A stretch of 64,000 nt of DNA. It comes from Pristiophorus japonicus. Taxonomy: Eukaryota. The translations under genes and the position numbers were made by a program. Under the pieces are notes generated by a model. The model was not told where the DNA came from, ran no database searches, and saw only the letters and a list, made by a program, of their open reading frames with translations. Positions 1 to 35,936 of this stretch are shown here, one piece after another. The DNA lies in contig NC_091990.1 of NCBI RefSeq assembly GCF_044704955.1, positions 184,574,001-184,638,000 of the forward strand, given 5' to 3'. Within the stretch, counting starts at the first letter, position 1; every line of letters begins with the position of its first letter.

Positions 1-3000
1 TTTCTATGTCACTATGTTTCTATGTCTCTATGTCTCTATGTCTCTATGTCTCTATGTCTCTATGTTTCTATGTCTCTATATCTCTATGTCTCTATGTTTC
101 TATGTCACTATGTTTCTATGTCTCTATGTCGCTATGTCGCTATGTTTCTATGTCTCTATGTCTCTATGTCTCTATGTCTCTATGTTTCTATGTCTCTATA
201 TCTCTATGTCTCTATGTTTCTATGTCACTATGTTTCTATGTCTCTATGTCTCTATGTTTCTATGTCTCTATATCTCTATGTCTCTATGTTTCTATGTCAC
301 TATGTTTCTATGTCTCTATGTCTCTATGTCTCTATGTTTCTATGTCTCTATGTCTCTATGTCTCTATGTCTCTATGTCTCTATGTCTCTATGTCTCTATG
401 TCTCTATGTTTCTATGTCTCTATGTCTCTATATCTCTATGTCTCTATGTTTCTATGTCTCTATATCTCTATATCTCTATGTTTCTATGTCTCTATGTCTC
501 TATGTCTCTATGTCTCTATGTCTCTATGTCTCTATGTCTCTATGTTTCTATGTCTCTATGTCTCTATGTTTCTATGTCTCTATGTCTCTATATCTCTATG
601 TTTCTATGTCTCTATGTTTCTATGTCTCTATGTCTCTATATCTCTATGTCTCTATATCTCTATGTCTCTATGTCTCTATGTCTCTATGTCTCTATGTCTC
701 TATGTCTCTATGTCTCTATGTTTCTATGTCTCCATGTCTCTATGTTTCTATGTCTCTATATCTCTATGTTTCTATGTCTCTATGTCTCTATGTCTCTATG
801 TTTCTATGTCTCTATGTTTCTATGTCTCTATGTCTCTATGTCTCTATGTTTCTATGTTTCTATGTCTCTATGTCTCTATGTCTCTATGTTTCTATGTCTC
901 TATGTTTCTATGTTTCTATGTCTCTATGTCTCTATGTCTCTATGTTTCTATGTTTCTATGTCTCTATGTCTCTATGTCTCTATGTCTCTATGTTTCTATA
1001 TCTCTATGTCTCTATGTTTCTATGTCTCTATGTTTCTATATCTCTATGTTTCTATGTCTCTATGTCTCTATGTCTCTATGTTTCTATGTCTCTATGTTTC
1101 TATGTCTCTATGTCTCTATGTCTCTATGTTTCTATGTTTCTATGTCTCTATGTCTCTATGTCTCTATATCTCTATGTCTCTATGTTTCTATGTTTCTATG
1201 TCTCTATGTCTCTATATCTCTATGTTTCTATGTCTCTATGTCTCTATGTCTCTATGTTTCTATGTCTCTATGTTTCTATGTCTCTATGTTTCTATGTCTC
1301 TCTGTCTCTATGTCTCTATGTTTCTATGTCTCTATGTTTCTATGTTTCTATGTCTCTATGTCTCTATGTTTCTATGTCTCTATGTCTCTATGTCTCTATA
1401 TCTCTATGTTTCTATGTTTCTATGTCTCTATGTCTCTATGTTTCTATGTTTCTATGTCTCTATGTCTCTATGTCTCTATGTCTCTATGTCTCTATGTCTC
1501 TATGTTTCTATATCTCTATGTCTCTCTGTTTCTATGTCTCTATGTTTCTATATCTCTATGTCTCTATGTTTCTATGTCTCTATGTTTCTATATCTCTATA
1601 TCTCTATGTTTCTATGTCTCTATGTCTCTATGTCTCTATGTCTCTATGTTTCTATGTCTCTATGTCTCTATGTCTCTATGTTTCTATGTTTCTATGTCTC
1701 TATGTCTCTATGTTTCTATATCTCTATGTCTCTATGTCTCTATGTCTCTATGTCTGTATGTCTCTATGTCTCTATGTTTCTCTGTCTCTATGTTTCTATG
1801 TCTCTATGTCTCTATGTTTCTATGTCTCTATATCTCTATGTCTCTATGTCTCTATGTCTCTATGTCTCTATGTCTCTATGTTTCTATGTCTCTATGTCTC
1901 TATGTCTCTATGTTCCTATATCTCTATGTCTCTATGTCTCTATGTCTCTATGTTTCTATGTCTCTATGTTTCTATGTCTCTATGTCTCTATGTTTCTATG
2001 TTTCTATGTCTCTATGTCTCTATGTCTCTATGTCTCTATGTCTCTATGTCTCTATGTTTCTATATCTCTATATCTCTATGTCTCTATGTCTCTATGTCTC
2101 TATGTTTCTATGTCTCTATGTTTCTATATCTCTATGTCTCTATGTTTCTATGTTTCTATGTCTCTATGTCTATGTCTCTATGTCTCTATGTCTCTATGTC
2201 TCTATGTCTCTATGTCTCTATGTTTCTATGTCTCTATGTCTCTATGTCTCTATGTCTCTATGTCTCTATGTTTCTATGTCTCTATGTCTCTATGTCTCTA
2301 TGTCTCTATGTCTCTATGTCTCTATATCTCTATGTCTCTATGTCTCTATGTCTCTATGTCTCTATGTCGCTATGTCTCTATGTCGCTATGTCGCTATGTT
2401 TCTATGTTTCTATGTCTCTATATCTCTATGTCTCTATGTTTCTATGTCTCTATGTCTCTATGTCGCTATGTTTCTATGTCTCTATGTTTCTATGTCTCTA
2501 TGTTTCTATGTCTCTATGTCTCTATGTCTCTATGTCTCTATGTCTCTATGTCTCTATGTTTCTATGTCTCTATGTCTCTATGTCTCTATGTCTCTATGTC
2601 TCTATGTTTCTATGTCTCTATGTCTCTATGTTTCTATGTCTCTATGTCTCTATATCTCTATGTCTCTATATCTCTATGTCTCTATGTCTCTATGTCTCTA
2701 TGTCTCTATGTTTCTATGTCTCTATGTCTCTATATCTCTTTGTCTCTATATCTCTATGTCTCTATATCTCTATGTCTCTATGTCTCTATGTCTCTATGTC
2801 TCTATATCTCTATGTCTCTATGTTTCTATGTCTCTATGTTTCTATGTCTCTATATCTCTATATCTCTATGTCTCTATATCTCTATGTCTCTATGTTTCTA
2901 TGTCTCTATGTTTCTATGTCTCTATGTCTCTATGTCTCTATGTCTCTATGTCTCTATGTTTCTATGTCTCTATGTCTCTATGTCTCTATGTCTCTATATC

Positions 3001-6000
3001 TCTATGTCTCTATGTCTCTATGTCTCTATGTTTCTATGTTTCTATGTCTCTATGTCTCTATGTTTCTATGTCTCTATGTTTCTATGTTTCTATGTCTCTA
3101 TGTTTCTATATCTCTATGTCTCTATGTTTCTATGTCTCTATGTTTCTATGTCTCTATGTCTCTATGTCTCTATATCTCTATGTCTCTATGTCTCTATGTT
3201 TCTATATCTCTATGTCTCTATATCTCGATGTCTCTATGTCTCTATATCTCTATGTTTCTATGTTTCTATGTCTCTATGTCTCTATGTCTCTATGTTTCTA
3301 TGTCTCTATATCTCTATGTCTCTATGTCTCTATGTTTCTATGTTTCTATGTCTCTATGTCTCTATGTCTCTATGTCTCTATGTTTCTATGTCTCTATGTC
3401 TCTATGTCTCTATGTCTCTATGTTTCTATGTCTCTATATCTCTATATCTCTATGTCTCTATGTCTCTATGTTTCTATGTTTCTATGTCTCTATGTCTCTA
3501 TGTCTCTATGTCTCTATGTCTCTATGTCTCTATGTCTCTATGTCTCTATGTCTCTATGTCTCTATGTCTCTATGTCGCTATGTCGCTATGTTTCTATGTT
3601 TCTATGTCTCTATATCTCTATGTCTCTATGTCTCTATGTCTCTATGTTTCTATGTCTCTATGTCTCTATGTCGCTATGTTTCTATGTCTCTATGTCTCTA
3701 TGTTTCTATGTTTCTATGTCTCTATGTCTCTATGTCTCTATGTTTCTATGTCTCTATGTCTCTATGTCTCTATATCTCTATGTCTCTATGTCTCTATGTC
3801 TCTATATCTCTATGTCTCTATGTCTCTATGTCTCTATGTCTCTATGTCTCTATGTCTCTATGTCTCTATGTCTCTATGTCTCTATATCTCTATTTCTCTA
3901 TGTCTCTATGTCTCTATATCTCTATGTCTCTATGTCTCTATGTCTCTATGTCTCTATGTCTCTATGTCTCTATATCTCTATATTTCTATGTCTCTATGTC
4001 TCTATGTTTCTATGTCTCTATGTCTCTATGTCTCTATGTTTCTATGTTTCTATGTCTCTATGTTTCTATATCTCTATGTCTCTATGTCTCTATGTCTCTA
4101 TGTCTCTATGTCTCTATGTCTCTATGTCTCTATGTCTCTATGTTTCTATGTCTCTATGTCTCTATGTTTCTATATCTCTATGTCTCTATATCTCTATGTT
4201 TCTATGTCTCTATGTTTCTATATCTCTATATCTCTATGTCTCTATGTCTCTATATCTCTATGTCTCTATGTTTCTATGTCTCTATGTCTCTATGTTTCTA
4301 TGTCTCTATGTCTCTATGTTTCTATATCTCTATGTTTCTATGTTTCTATGTCTCTATGTTTCTATATCTCTATGTTTCTATGTCTCTATGTCTCTATGTC
4401 TCTATGTTTCTATGTCTCTATGTTTCTATGTCTCTATGTCTCTATGTTTCTATGTCTCTATGTTTCTATGTCTCTATGTCTCTATGTCTCTATGTCTCTA
4501 TGTCTCTATGTCTCTATTTCTCTATGTTTCTATATCTCTATGTTTCTATGTCTCTATGTCTCTATGTCTCTATGTCTCTATATCTCTATGTCTCTATATC
4601 TCTATGTCTCTATGTTTCTATGTCTCTATGTCTCTATGTTTCTATGTCTCTATGTCTCTATATCTCTATGTCTCTATGTCTCTATGTCTCTATGTCTCTA
4701 TGTCTCTATATCTCTATGTCTCTATGTTTCTATGTCTCTATGTCTCTATGTCTCTATATCTCTATGTCTCTATGTCTCTATGTCTCTATGTTTCTATGTT
4801 TCTATGTCTCTATGTCTCTATGTTTCTATGTCTCTATGTTTCTATGTTTCTATGTCTCTATGTTTCTATATCTCTATGTCTCTATGTTTCTATGTCTCTA
4901 TGTCTCTATGTCTCTATGTCTCTATGTCTCTATGTCTCTATGTCTCTATATCTCTATGTTTCTATATCTCTATGTTTCTATGTCTCTATGTCTCTATGTC
5001 TCTATGTCTCTATGTCTCTATATCTCTATGTCTCTATGTTTCTATGTCTCTATGTCTCTATGTTTCTATGTCTCTATGTCTCTATATCTCTATGTCTCTA
5101 TGTCTCTATGTCTCTATGTCTCTATGTCTCTATGTCTCTATGTTTCTATATCTCTATGTCTCTATGTCTCTATGTCTCTATGTTTCTATGTCTCTATGTC
5201 TCTATGTTTCTATGTCTCTATGTTTCTATGTTTCTATGTCTCTATGTTTCTATATCTCTATGTCTCTATGTTTCTATGTCTCTATGTCTCTATGTCTCTA
5301 TGTCTCTATGTCTCTATGTCTCTATGTCTCTATATCTCTATGTTTCTATATCTCTATGTTTCTATGTCTCTATGTCTCTATGTCTCTATGTCTCTATGTC
5401 TCTATGTCTCTATATCTCTATGTCTCTATGTTTCTATGTCTCTATGTCTCTATGTTTCTATGTCTCTATGTCTCTATATCTCTATGTCTCTATGTCTCTA
5501 TGTCTCTATGTCTCTATGTCTCTATGTCTCTATGTTTCTATGTTTCTATGTCTCTATGTCTCTATGTCTCTATATCTCTATGTCTCTATGTCTCTATGTC
5601 TCTATGTTTCTATGTCTCTATGTCTCTATGTTTCTATGTCTCTATGTTTCTATGTTTCTATGTCTCTATGTTTCTATATCTCTATGTCTCTATGTCTCTA
5701 TGTCAGTATGTCTCTATGTCTCTATGTCTCTATGTCTCTATGTCTCTATGTCTCTATGTTTCTATGTCTCTATATCTCTATATCTCTATGTCTCTATGTC
5801 TCTATGTCTCTATATCTCTATATCTCTATGTCTCTATGTCTCTATGTTTCTATGTCTCTATATCTCTATATCTCTATGTCTCTATGTCTCTATGTCTCTA
5901 TGTCTCTATGTCTCTATGTTTCTATGTCTCTATGTCTCTATGTCTCTATGTCTCTATGTCTCTATGTCTCTATGTCTCTATGTCTCTATGTTTCTATGTC

Positions 6001-6286
6001 TCTATATCTCTATATCTCTATGTCTCTATGTCTCTATGTTTCTATGTCTCTATGTCTCTATGTCTCTATGTCTCTATGTCTCTATGTCTCTATGTCTCTA
6101 TATCTCTCTGTTTCTATGTCTCTATGTCTCTATGTTTCTATGTCTCTATGTCTCTATGTCTCTATGTCTCTATGTTTCTATGTCTCTATATCTCTATATC
6201 TCTATGTCTCTATGTCTCTATGTCTCTATGTCTCTATGTTTCTATGTTTCTATGTCTCTATATCTCTATATCTCTTTGTTTCTATG
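1..6286 (+). repeat. 8-bp tandem satellite (TCTATGTC)n with TCTATGTT and TCTATATC variants; runs off the left edge of the window
   Basis: About 785 uninterrupted octamers, one 6-nt unit near 2165-2175, rare CAC/CGC variants. The TCTATGTT variant is identical to the CR1 tails at 42229-42247, 56729-56757 and 63603-63624. Confidence 0.98.
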
Positions 6287-6675
6287 ACACTTCTACAAAC
6301 TCTGCAACATCTGATAGAAATCAATTAACAACTAACCTGTCAGTCGGTGATGATCCTTTTAAACATCGCTGGTGGGGGATTCTTCCTGCTGCTGAACACG
6401 TTCAGCTGTGCGAGGGTAAGAGAGGGCGTTAGCTCCGTCTAAACTGGCAGCGCTGGCGTCAAATCAGCTTTGCACATTGATTGACGTCACGATCTGCCTA
6501 CTCTGTATACTTACAGCGTACGCTCCCAGCGCTGATTCTAATGCCCTCAGCAAAATGGTGTCCATCATGGTCCACATCAGAAGTGCGCGTGTTCGCTATT
6601 CAGACGTCATTTTCGAGCCAATTTGACACTCGTAGTGCCCAAAAAATGGGCGCAACGCAACTGAATTTTTATCCC
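6287..6675. mobile_element. Harbinger-type terminal remnant (region upstream of transposase plus putative TIR)
   Basis: 6330-6435 (ACAACTAACCTG...GCTGGTGGGGG...CTGCTGAACAC...TTCAGCTGTGC...AGAGAGGGCGTTAGCT) aligns with 22619-22725, which lies upstream of a Harbinger transposase. Ends in the TIR-like GAATTTTTATCCC. Confidence 0.65.
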
Positions 6676-7194
6676 ATCAACTCTTTAATCTCTCGTCCAA
6701 GGCCTGAGCGGCAGCAGTCTGAGCAGCCATGGAGAAAGCTGTGCCTGCTCCTAGAATCTCTGTGGTTGGGCATCTGCTGCAGTTCAGCCTGCTGGTAGCC
6801 AATGCTCCAAGGTGGCCAATAATGCTGCAGAGCCATCCATCATCCTGGAGCACATGTTGGTTCTGAACTTCTCCAGCTAGCTTGACAGCTTGACATATTC
6901 GGAGACACTGTCCCTGTTGTCATTATATAGATACTAAGTTCTGCAATTATCTTTCCCGTAAAAGCAGGTCCAGTCAGATTGGTGTCCTTAGGCTCCTCAG
7001 CCTGGAGAAGGCATTTACTGACCCTTGGCACAGAAGAATGTGCCTCCTAATCTTGTACCCCTGGTTCCTCTTGCCTGCATCACCCTGTACACTATCCTCT
7101 CACTCACTTCCTAATGTGCCTCCGGTGTATGTCTCTGGGCTGATGCTTGGCAGGGAAAGGGTGAATGGGGGCATGTGTGATACTGGTTCACAGG

Positions 7195-12710: not shown

Positions 12711-12766
12711 ATTTGCCACATAAAAGGTTACTGCCCAAGATAAAAGTTCACAGGGTTGGGGGTAAT

Positions 12767-13955
12767 AACATAAGAACATAAGAGCAGGCAAGAACATAAG
12801 AACATAAGAACATAAGGAATAGGAGCAGGAGTAGACCACTCAAGTCTGCTCCGCAATTCAATATGATCATGGCTGATCTGATCATGGACTCAGGTCCACC
12901 TCCCTGCCTGCTCCCCATAACCCCTTATTCCCTTATCGTTTAAGAAACTGTCTATTTCTGTCCTAAGTGTATTCAATGTCCCAGCTTCCACAGCTCTCTG
13001 AGACAGCGAATTCCACAGATTTACAACCCTCTGAGAGAAGAAATTTCTCCTCATCTGTTTTAAATGGGCGGCCCCTTATTCTAAGATCATGCCCTCTAGT
13101 TCTAGTCTCCCCTATCAGTGGAAACATCCTCTCTGCATCCACCTTGTCAAGCCCCCTCATAATCTTATACGTTTCAATAAGATCACCTCTCAGTCTTCTG
13201 AATTCCGATGAGTAGAGGCCCAATCTACTCAACCTTTCCTCATAAGACAACCTCCTCATCTCCAGAATCAACCTGGTGAACATTCTCTGAACTGCCTCCA
13301 AAGCAAGTATATCCTTTTGTAAATATGGAAACCAAAACTGCATGCAGTATTCCAGGTGTGGCCTCACCAATACCCAATACAACTGTAGCAAGACTTCCCT
13401 GCTTTTATACTCTATCCCCTTTGCGATAAAGGCCAAGATTCCATTGGCCTTCCTGATCACTTGCTGTACCTGCATACTAACCTTTTGTGTTTGTTGCAGA
13501 AATACCCCCAGGTCCTGCTGTACTGCAGCACTTTGCAATCTCTCTCCATTTAAATAATAACTTGCTCTTTGATTTTCTTTATGCTAAAGTGCATGACCTC
13601 ACACTTTCCAACATTATACTCCATCTGCCAAATTCTTGCCCACTCACTTGGCCTGTCTATATATTTTTGCAGATTTTTTGTGTCCTCATCACACATTGCT
13701 TTTCCTCCCATCTTTGTATCATCAGCAAACTTGGCTACATTACACTCGGTCCCTTCTTCCAAGTCGTTAATATAGATTGTAAATAGTTGGGGTCCCAGCA
13801 CTGATCCCTGTGGCACCCCACTAATTACTGATTGCCAACCCGAGAATGTGTTTTCTGTTTGTTAGCCAATCCTCTATCCACGCTAATATATTACCCCCAA
13901 CCCCGTGAACTTTTATCTTGTGCAGTAACCTTTTATGTGGCAACTTGTCAAATGC
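12767..13955 (-). mobile_element. 5'-truncated CR1 LINE, (TTCTTATG)n-tail subfamily
   Basis: PQGSVLGPQLF, FADDTK, RPHLEYCMQFW; tail AAGAACAT repeats at about 12767-12815. Confidence 0.93.
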
Positions 13956-13959
13956 CACA

Positions 13960-14085
13960 TGAAAGTGGACCTGAGTCCATGATCGGATCAGCCAAGATCG
14001 TATTAACTAGCGGAGCAGGCTCGAGGGCCCGTATGGCCTACTCCTGCTCCTATTTCTTATGTTCTTATGGTCTTATGTTCTTAGA
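13960..14085 (+). mobile_element. CR1 3' UTR and tail stub
   Basis: GGAGCAGGCTCGAGGGCCCGTATGGCCTACTCCTGCTCC followed by TTCTTATG repeats. Confidence 0.9.
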
Positions 14086-35510: not shown

Positions 35511-35936
35511 GTCTACCCAGCTGGGTTATCTCTAGTCTACCCAGGTAGGTTATCTCTAGTCTACCCAGGTGGGTTATCTCTAGTCTACCCAGCTGGGTTA
35601 TCTCTAGTCTACCCAGGTGGGTTATCTCTAGTCTACCCAGGTGGGTTATCTCTAGTCTACCCAGCTGGGTTATCTCTAGTCTACCCAGCTGGGTTATCTC
35701 TAGTCTACCCAGCTGGGTTATCTCTAGTCTACCCAGCTGGGTTATCTCTAGTCTACCCAGCTGGGTTATCTCTAGTCTACCCAGGTGGGTTATCTCTAGT
35801 CTACCCAGCTGGGTTATCTCTAGTCTACCCAGCTGGGTTATCTCTAGTCTACCCAGGTGGGTTATCTCTAGTCTACCCAGCTGGGTTATCTCTAGTCTAC
35901 CCAGCTGGGTTATCTCTAGTCTACCCAGCTGGGTTA
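35511..35936. repeat. 24-bp minisatellite (GTCTACCCAGCTGGGTTATCTCTA) x about 18
   Basis: Near-perfect tandem copies; main variant CAGCTG/CAGGTG, one CAGGTA; internal palindrome ACCCAGCTGGGT. Confidence 0.97.

Follow-up and report, generated by a model that had tools for sequence, protein, structure and literature searches.

How did the tail of a LINE, which ordinarily holds a handful of octamers, come to carry a satellite of several kilobases? The 64,000-nucleotide stretch of Pristiophorus japonicus DNA analysed here (the window; G000:C14:184574001-184638000) opens with such an array (1..6286, + strand), which takes the place of the tail in a CR1 insertion and extends 462 bp beyond the window's upstream edge. 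TRF called a single array at 3-6286 with 91% matches and 0% indels, and parsing of the assembly sequence into units gave 786 octamers in the window and 843 over 6,748 bp in the whole array, so that the multi-kilobase satellite proposed in the first-pass annotation is real in the assembly; the DNA upstream of the window holds no N. Also as annotated, the CR1 copies in the window end in 2-4 octamers (seven CR1 3' ends found by motif).

The array lies at the 3' end of a CR1 insertion

Upstream of the window lies a 5'-truncated CR1 of 2,716 bp (L001:6823-9538 = C14:184570823-184573538) with an endonuclease remnant, a reverse transcriptase (RT) and a 3' UTR. Its ORF2 carries endonuclease and RT (Pfam Exo_endo_phos_2, E 1e-8; RVT_1, E 7e-33), interrupted by one frameshift and one stop, and we call the element CR1 from the earlier label, these domains and the octamer tail. 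A + strand CR1 3' UTR leading straight into the array had been predicted and was found 462 bp before the window, the predicted 28-mer being present with 3 mismatches. CR1 LINEs are described in parts of two reports as having an octamer microsatellite behind the 3' UTR (PMC4316615, PMC8665684), and the close sisters of the focal element that have a 3' end carry 2-4 near-canonical units there in 28 of 28 cases, G>A being present in two of these tails.

The repeat to the right of the array (6287..6690, no strand assigned) resumes to the left of the CR1 (L001 ~6320-6822, outside the window), which is the other half that the annotation had expected; it was split by the insertion of CR1 and array with nothing lost. 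The insertion site shows a 0-1 bp overlap without a clear target-site duplication, and is empty in 12 of 12 host-repeat paralogs. A 5'-truncated CR1 thus went cleanly into an older repeat, and the array is everything from the 3' UTR to the host junction, sitting directly at the element's 3' end within the insertion as LINE-seeded microsatellites do. The description of the flank as a Harbinger remnant held as regards a split repeat, while its identity is a lead only: the host-repeat peptides had no Pfam match, and one 60-aa peptide led to DUF8040 (0.91) and Plant_tran (0.88) clusters in an Atlas feature search, families that we take to be linked to Harbinger. The host repeat was scanned for repeats half by half, so that the scan covered repeats within a half and not terminal ones. 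At the 3' end of the insertion (6271..6286, +) the last junction retains the canonical (Q-type) base, and an 84-nt contig covering 6250-6333 without any difference, present in two of four public runs of one sample, supports the array-host junction and not array length; the depth of the contigs carries no information on length or zygosity.

A three-unit mosaic apparently younger than its CR1

Three units make up the mosaic of the focal array: P accounts for 63%, canonical Q for 22% and R for 11%. The dominant unit P is the canonical tail unit with one base changed (T>C), in agreement with the annotation, and R is two changes away from Q; with Q making up only 22% of the 843 units, the repeat is not built of the element's own tail motif. 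A first register with four freely assorting units was rejected, a shifted register giving three linked types with the fourth seen once against ~22 expected. QQ pairs are depleted (0.62 observed). In the coded unit string, a rare T>G unit, first clustered in the window at 129..144 (+), is seen again at 2367-2398, 2463, 3575-3590 and 3671 in similar unit context, and a block of 27-28 units at 4799..5014 (+) has an exact second copy at ~5183-5398 (lag 48 units), which is a local DNA-level duplication. Rare events amount to at most 15 substitutions and 3 indels, and transversions account for 11 of the 13 rare changes that fall on invariant positions, unlike in the CR1 body.

Base-matched counts gave 13 changes in 5,058 for the array versus 10 in 1,603 for the CR1 body (p 0.046), transitions 2/5058 versus 4/1603 (p 0.033), and over all bases the difference in changes had p 1e-6. 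The private changes of the body (5 synonymous, 18 non-synonymous, 1 stop) look neutral. The counts moderately support an array younger than its CR1, not one as old as the element body as template slippage in TPRT would have it, and later turnover could give the same signal. An array younger than the body implies growth mostly after insertion, bearing out the substantial post-insertion growth that the annotation had favoured; its other suggestion, telomerase-like copying at the element's own insertion as the main source, was not supported, in view of the age difference and the 2-4 units of all 28 sisters.

In simulations the focal array was fitted only by ~200-800 short out-of-register copy steps, from seeds that by assumption already held P, Q and R, and the observed QQ depletion was not reproduced. 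Single-unit slippage, which predicts a 4-8 fold QQ enrichment, and growth by a few large duplications were both rejected for this array by simulation. The large arrays were enlarged through kb-scale DNA duplications.

The same mix at other LINE ends

Tails with at least two units number 155,623 in the genome. An ordinary tail has 1-5 canonical units, and how often long ones occur was judged from samples and from similarity searches with a capped number of candidates. A census covering 40 scored candidates of each P-rich similarity query, with pure-Q arrays outside its scope, revealed at least five P/Q/R arrays beyond the focal one, of 3.7-57.5 kb. At all six loci P (39-71%), Q (10-25%) and R (7-32%) are the three commonest units, all other units staying below 3% in each array and a parser indel class reaching 5% in C13, and the mix was recovered although two finding queries lacked R. 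Four of the five other arrays sit behind CR1s 96.8, 96.4, 86.4 and 71.2% identical to the focal CR1; the upstream end of the fifth does not align to it and is presumably another LINE. The mix fills at least five further LINE-end positions, and five of the six arrays lie behind an aligned CR1 3' end, where a homologous resident repeat would already have lain, as the Rsp-like model discussed below expects. At least six arrays with one mix behind different LINE ends mean that the focal array is possibly not its own tail amplified, so that the annotated expansion of one tail more than 200-fold stands as regards a CR1 tail position and perhaps not as regards that tail's own sequence.

No derived changes are common to the focal CR1 and the C14b or C6 CR1, while the latter two have four in common and may be of one sub-lineage. 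Retrotransposition from a single long-tailed source was ruled out for the focal, C14b, C2735 and C13 arrays by comparing upstream elements and derived changes, and segmental duplication of one locus by 3' flanks that all differ. Matches on C17, C2527, C3073 and C3810 proved to be other repeats.

P is the first unit at the UTR in all six arrays (chance ~0.05), a Q-type last junction is kept in five (p ~0.001 at 18% Q), and QQ is depleted in all six. The exact pattern of UTR, two canonical units and P units had no match, since the first full unit of the focal array is P. In C6 the final 17 nt of the UTR are missing at the junction, and a 13 bp target-site duplication there is the sole clear case; a 10-bp candidate at C4187-C4203 is weak, chance matches of 9-12 bp occurring in the same scan. 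All four chromosome-placed arrays lie 1.6-8.4 Mb from an end (0.8-4.3% of chromosome length) on the same strand.

In comparisons that took up to 3,000 units from the start of each array, none of 15 pairs aligned clearly above a block-shuffle null, and near-identical tracts such as an interlocus conversion model expects were not seen; focal and C6 k-mers of 8-14 units were not over-represented in any of the other arrays (|z| < 1.7). Bigram and trigram rules vary from array to array, and recent small-scale scrambling in the big arrays runs at ~2 events per rare change (268:132).

R reaches at least 7% in six of eight P-rich arrays, and C3942 and C9 lack it among their common units; the C3942 array, 4.6 kb long, has no CR1 body and is flanked by an apparent 7-bp duplication. 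Medium tails near the top of the UTR-plus-P query are canonical Q (3-13 units), and P-dominated tails of 5 to ~450 units were absent among the scored candidates of the P-rich queries. In a tail of 15 units, 0.78 Mb away from the R-rich array on C13, there are two R units and no P. Expansions of other variants at C28 (38.2 kb) and C15 (24 units) both open with three canonical units and have in common a T>A variant that arose at each. Arrays of 38.2 and 6.0 kb at C28 and C822, with flanks 98.2-99.4% identical, are probable alleles.

Possible routes to a shared mix

Our preferred reading, which we consider evenly balanced, is that a tail-born satellite reached other LINE tails through repair synthesis running out of register, with kb-scale duplications following; we infer a single origin of the P/Q/R mix from a CR1 tail and then ectopic homology-directed copying to other tails. 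The mix would have been born once, in a CR1 tail; a break in a short canonical tail would lead to invasion of a P/Q/R array already present in a distal part of a chromosome, where synthesis slipping or re-invading every few units would write kilobases of near-random mosaic, keeping the donor's composition and losing its order. The new tract would rejoin the remaining canonical units, to be enlarged later by unequal exchange. Counted for this spread were the top three units shared despite differing upstream elements, an R that is not inevitable on a P background (C3942, C9), the P start and Q-type end, the lack of intermediate P tails, the distal positions, the UTR loss in C6, the tail with R but without P near C13, the simulated fit by many short out-of-register steps as against few rare events, and the age difference; counted against it were the missing donor (0/15 pairs, no k-mer excess) and the local expansion of tails with other variants (C28, C15). 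Scrambling at ~2 events per rare change is not fast enough to blur a plain copy, so the model would require the copying itself to switch often. That the arrays grew convergently is possible, if doubtful: tails with T>C (and G>A) in distal recombination-rich regions would turn unstable, each then growing on its own through allelic exchange of the minisatellite type, and the shared mix would reflect a bias in mutation or fixation. G>A changes are common, and T>C is possibly favoured by GC-biased conversion or by making a recombination-hot motif. Convergence suits arrays without shared blocks, the independent expansions at C28 and C15, the many chances that the genome's tails offer, the G>A of two sister tails and the length difference between C28 and C822. 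It accounts poorly for R being the recurrent addition in six of eight P-rich arrays while other variants stay below 3%, with the remaining two lacking R among common units, and for the absence of intermediate P-dominated tails among the scored candidates, and the QQ enrichment predicted by single-unit slippage runs opposite to the depletion in six of six arrays.

Writing of the mosaic by a CR1 RT that slips along a short RNA template with P, Q and R is, taken as a whole, unlikely. A common template would yield three shared units and no shared order, as observed, and Q retention at the 3' end with P at the 5' end would suit synthesis that starts from the 3' end of the RNA; eel UnaL2 offers a precedent for slippage of the template on the 3' repeats of a LINE, as related second-hand in a part of PMC3747384. 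The transversions at invariant positions and the body-less C3942 array with its duplication on both sides are also consistent with RT, but rare variants are found again, together with neighbouring units, at distances above 1 kb, a pattern that requires DNA copying, and the bigram and trigram rules are not uniform among arrays. As an event at insertion, the first-pass idea, it is very improbable, given an array younger than a body whose private changes look neutral, canonical sister tails, and upstream elements whose differences leave no single source. It is improbable, too, that RT acted telomerase-like on inserted, broken tails, where it would prime on leftover canonical units and recopy a shared P/Q/R RNA in trans, DNA duplication enlarging the product. 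An assembly artefact or inflated length is highly unlikely: the public data consist, as far as found, of contigs from four runs of a single sample and array length is assembly length, but both flanks come from one host copy, there is no N, the unit order is information-rich and common to no other array, and contigs of two runs contain the 3' junction.

Related systems and implications

Tail-seeded tandem repeats are of a known kind, of which the three-unit mosaic at six LINE ends is a new variant. In snakes, according to parts of PMC3157835 and PMC6050309, CR1 LINE tails seed microsatellites, with the tail motif at many loci; there too the CR1 3' tail repeat gives tandem repeats next to the element, whereas here a few tails extend to 4-57 kb with the canonical unit in a minority (10-25%). 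The human Alu tails at RFC1 and ATXN10 hold expanded pentanucleotide repeats (excerpts of PMC9099484). They share with our arrays a retroelement tail, a post-insertion change to a GC-richer motif and hundreds to thousands of units, but are mostly pure tracts at single loci, unlike a three-unit mosaic at six loci and in different LINE families. Mouse ESTRs are unstable, and the focal array resembles them in its unit below 10 bp, kilobase length and retroelement origin. A hint of length mutability comes from the other array type only, the probable alleles of 38.2 and 6.0 kb (C28/C822). The ESTRs Ms6-hm, Hm-2 and the B1-derived (GGCAGA)n family (Table 1 of PMC9659126) are likewise long short-unit arrays from retroelements, the B1 case being a multi-locus family, but stem from internal element sequence, not from a LINE tail. 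In Drosophila, the Rsp-like satellite described in a part of PMC7403614 invades 1.688 clusters: a rare satellite reaches loci of an abundant repeat via homology or microhomology and is then expanded by unequal exchange. The Drosophila repeats are very similar between loci and eccDNA was shown, whereas here the loci have no unit block in common and a LINE tail of 2-4 units serves as landing pad.

Satellite birth and spread to new loci are usually inferred once the birthplace has been erased. Here the birthplace is fixed by the empty site and datable through the LINE body, the more than 155,000 tails that did not expand provide controls, and the six arrays, alike in unit mix and unlike in order, make interlocus copying, convergence and RT writing mutually testable. 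No function is implied for the arrays. The data point to a satellite that grows in LINE tails and may spread between them; if the tails are landing pads, each LINE copy of the CR1 family would be a potential site of satellite nucleation.

CR1 insertion and array

The first-pass annotation had described a multi-kilobase octamer array at the window start, and TRF recovered it at 3-6286 with 91% matches. Reading upstream through DNA free of N, we found a further 462 bp of array beyond the left edge of the window, which brings the total to 6,748 bp, or 843 units; the locus is on C14, a 187.7-Mb contig in a genome of 5.92 Gb, with 3.1 Mb separating the window from the contig end. As predicted, a + strand CR1 3' UTR leads directly into the array upstream of the window, and the structural reading of the array as occupying the CR1 tail position was right; the element is a 5'-truncated, + strand CR1 of 2,716 bp with endonuclease and RT domains. 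The other half of the interrupted host repeat was also where it had been expected: in 12/12 paralogs, fetched from the 40 listed for the right-hand repeat, DNA matching the left flank of the CR1 passes without interruption into DNA matching the right flank of the array, indicating that CR1 and array are one clean insertion. The junction at this empty site typically shows 0-1 bp of overlap, with a small deletion in one paralog. The host repeat is present on both sides of the insertion, its Harbinger identity being a lead only. By eye, the left part of the host repeat is immediately preceded by an LTR-retrotransposon-like element in minus-strand orientation (about 1430-6320 of the fetched upstream stretch L001).

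Ordinary CR1 tails and age of the array

By a short pattern count, 155,623 CR1 ends carry two or more units (control pattern, 0). In a 314.5-kb sample of 20 stretches around such matches, some of them mutual duplicates, plus the neighbourhood of the focal locus, 73 UTR matches had tails of 0-5 units (TRF maximum 5.8); 61 had one unit or more, almost exclusively canonical, and the other 12 ended in different tail types. The 29 closest sisters of the focal CR1 are 96.5-98% identical, and each of the 28 with a 3' end has 2-4 units. Several sampled stretches from the first 2.6 Mb of C1 (L059-L078) share identical CR1 ends and flanks, which suggests segmental duplications; on C3919 (L136:4088 onward), a two-unit CR1 tail is followed by several kb of TC-rich low-complexity sequence. 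Short runs of a second octamer type at window 12763-12816 and 14054-14083 are apparently tails of another LINE family.

The CR1 body carries 25 private changes over about 2,340 columns, which look neutral (of the 24 in coding sequence, 18 are non-synonymous, 5 synonymous and 1 a stop). At the six invariant positions of the array, no more than 13 events are seen across 5,058 sites, where about 34 would be expected (Fisher p against the CR1 body, 0.046 with base matching, 0.033 on transitions, 1e-6 on all bases). Given this deficit the array is probably younger than the insertion, although turnover alone would leave the same signal. Telomerase-like copying at insertion, one of the routes proposed earlier, is disfavoured by the age test and by the short sister tails. 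In window 1-6286, transversions make up 11 of the 13 rare changes at invariant positions, in contrast to the CR1 body; error-prone synthesis and consensus errors are both possible.

Unit composition and growth

The focal array consists of unit P (TCTATGTC, 63%), the canonical unit Q (TCTATGTT, 22%) and unit R (TCTATATC, 11%), evenly distributed from end to end, with a fourth combination occurring once. Clusters of a rare T>G unit reappear at distances above 1 kb, and a block of 27-28 units has a second copy at lag 48, demonstrating that DNA-level copying has acted on the array. Single-unit slippage was rejected, as simulations enriched adjacent Q units (QQ) 4-8 fold vs 0.62 observed; large duplications were rejected, giving mean redundancy >0.75 vs a low observed self-redundancy (0.19 at 12 units, 0.08 at 16). 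The best fit came from a mixed seed, with all three units assumed present from the start, that underwent some 200-800 short copying steps out of register. Elsewhere in the window, at 35511-35936, lies a 24-bp minisatellite with two variants of its unit, at 17.8 copies and 97% matches.

A family of tail satellites

The focal locus is one of a few giant tail satellites that form a family. With pieces of the array as queries, similarity searches that scored 40 candidates each retrieved five further P/Q/R arrays: C14:186.08 Mb (37.5 kb), C2735 (24.2 kb) and C13:188.57 Mb (40.2 kb), behind CR1s 96.8%, 86% and 71% identical to the focal one; C6:264.23 Mb (3.7 kb; CR1 96% identical, UTR without its last 17 nt, 13-bp target duplication); and C4187 plus C4203 (19.0 + 38.5 kb), behind an end not alignable to the focal CR1 and counted as one array by orientation, contig ends and a weak 10-bp repeat. 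In two later searches the best 150 of 407 rows held these loci only and the best 150 of 384 one extra short tail, so among matches listed the collection of arrays with this mix appears almost complete. The four arrays placed on chromosomes all lie on the + strand, at distances of 1.6-8.4 Mb from the high-coordinate end. Within each of the four big arrays the two halves align strongly (scores 128-718 vs 22-27), and the C4203 array holds one CR1 insertion in three tandem copies. Four of four independent younger CR1 insertions (C2735, two in C13, C4203) are antisense to their arrays.

Other types occur. Arrays of Q with a T>A variant, each starting with three canonical units, were found at C28:25673115-25711311 (38.2 kb; L133-L135, L151), C822:530364-536392 (6.0 kb; L160, L161) and C15 (24 units); the first two follow the same CR1 insertion, with flanks 98.2-99.4% identical, and are probable alleles. 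On C3942 (L091:820-5416) and C9 (L158:4467-5081), P is combined with a T>C variant in arrays that have no CR1 UTR in front and adjoin another minisatellite, the former array being flanked on both sides by an apparent 7-bp duplication. A 15-unit CR1 tail at C13:187.79 Mb (L162:320-440), separated from the large C13 array by 0.78 Mb, is a mixture of canonical units, two R units and a T>C variant, without P. Further long arrays (L092, C17; L095, C3810; L093, C2527; L094, C3073) comprise two with an 8-bp period across the whole fetched 10 kb and two that are TC-rich.

Origin of the family

Published papers already describe CR1-tail seeding of tandem repeats (PMC3157835, PMC6050309), a 3' octamer microsatellite behind the CR1 3' UTR (PMC4316615, PMC8665684), template slippage on LINE 3' repeats in eel UnaL2 (PMC3747384), Alu-tail expansion with motif change (PMC9099484), mouse ESTRs (PMC9659126) and interlocus satellite spread (PMC7403614). 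Titles and abstract openings of the open-access literature, the scope of our search, yielded no description of multi-kilobase CR1-tail satellites.

The puzzle of the family is that composition is common to arrays at different LINE ends and unit order is not: alignment found sharing in 0/15 pairs and k-mer comparison found no excess. An assembly artefact is very unlikely, a contig having confirmed the 3' junction, though not the array length, in two runs. Writing of the mosaic by the RT would account for both common composition and unshared order; judged from sequence it is rather improbable, and its at-insertion form is contradicted by the age test and sister tails. Convergent local growth accounts for the absence of shared blocks but depends on a strong, hypothetical bias, and we regard it as possible yet doubtful.

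We favour, at about an even chance, the reading that the mix arose once and was copied ectopically with frequent switches of template. This reading is opposed by the failure to find a donor block among the P/Q/R arrays and by the low rate of recent scrambling in the big ones, about 2 events per rare change. It is favoured because R occurs wherever P and Q do, including in arrays retrieved by R-free queries, because P-rich arrays without R exist, and because intermediates were missing from searches scoring 40 candidates each; further support comes from the canonical 3' junction kept in 5/6 arrays, the P start in 6/6 and the C13 tail with R but no P. Under ectopic copying, a P/Q/R mix of one origin, shared by all six arrays, would have been carried to other LINE ends, with frequent switches of template during the copying.
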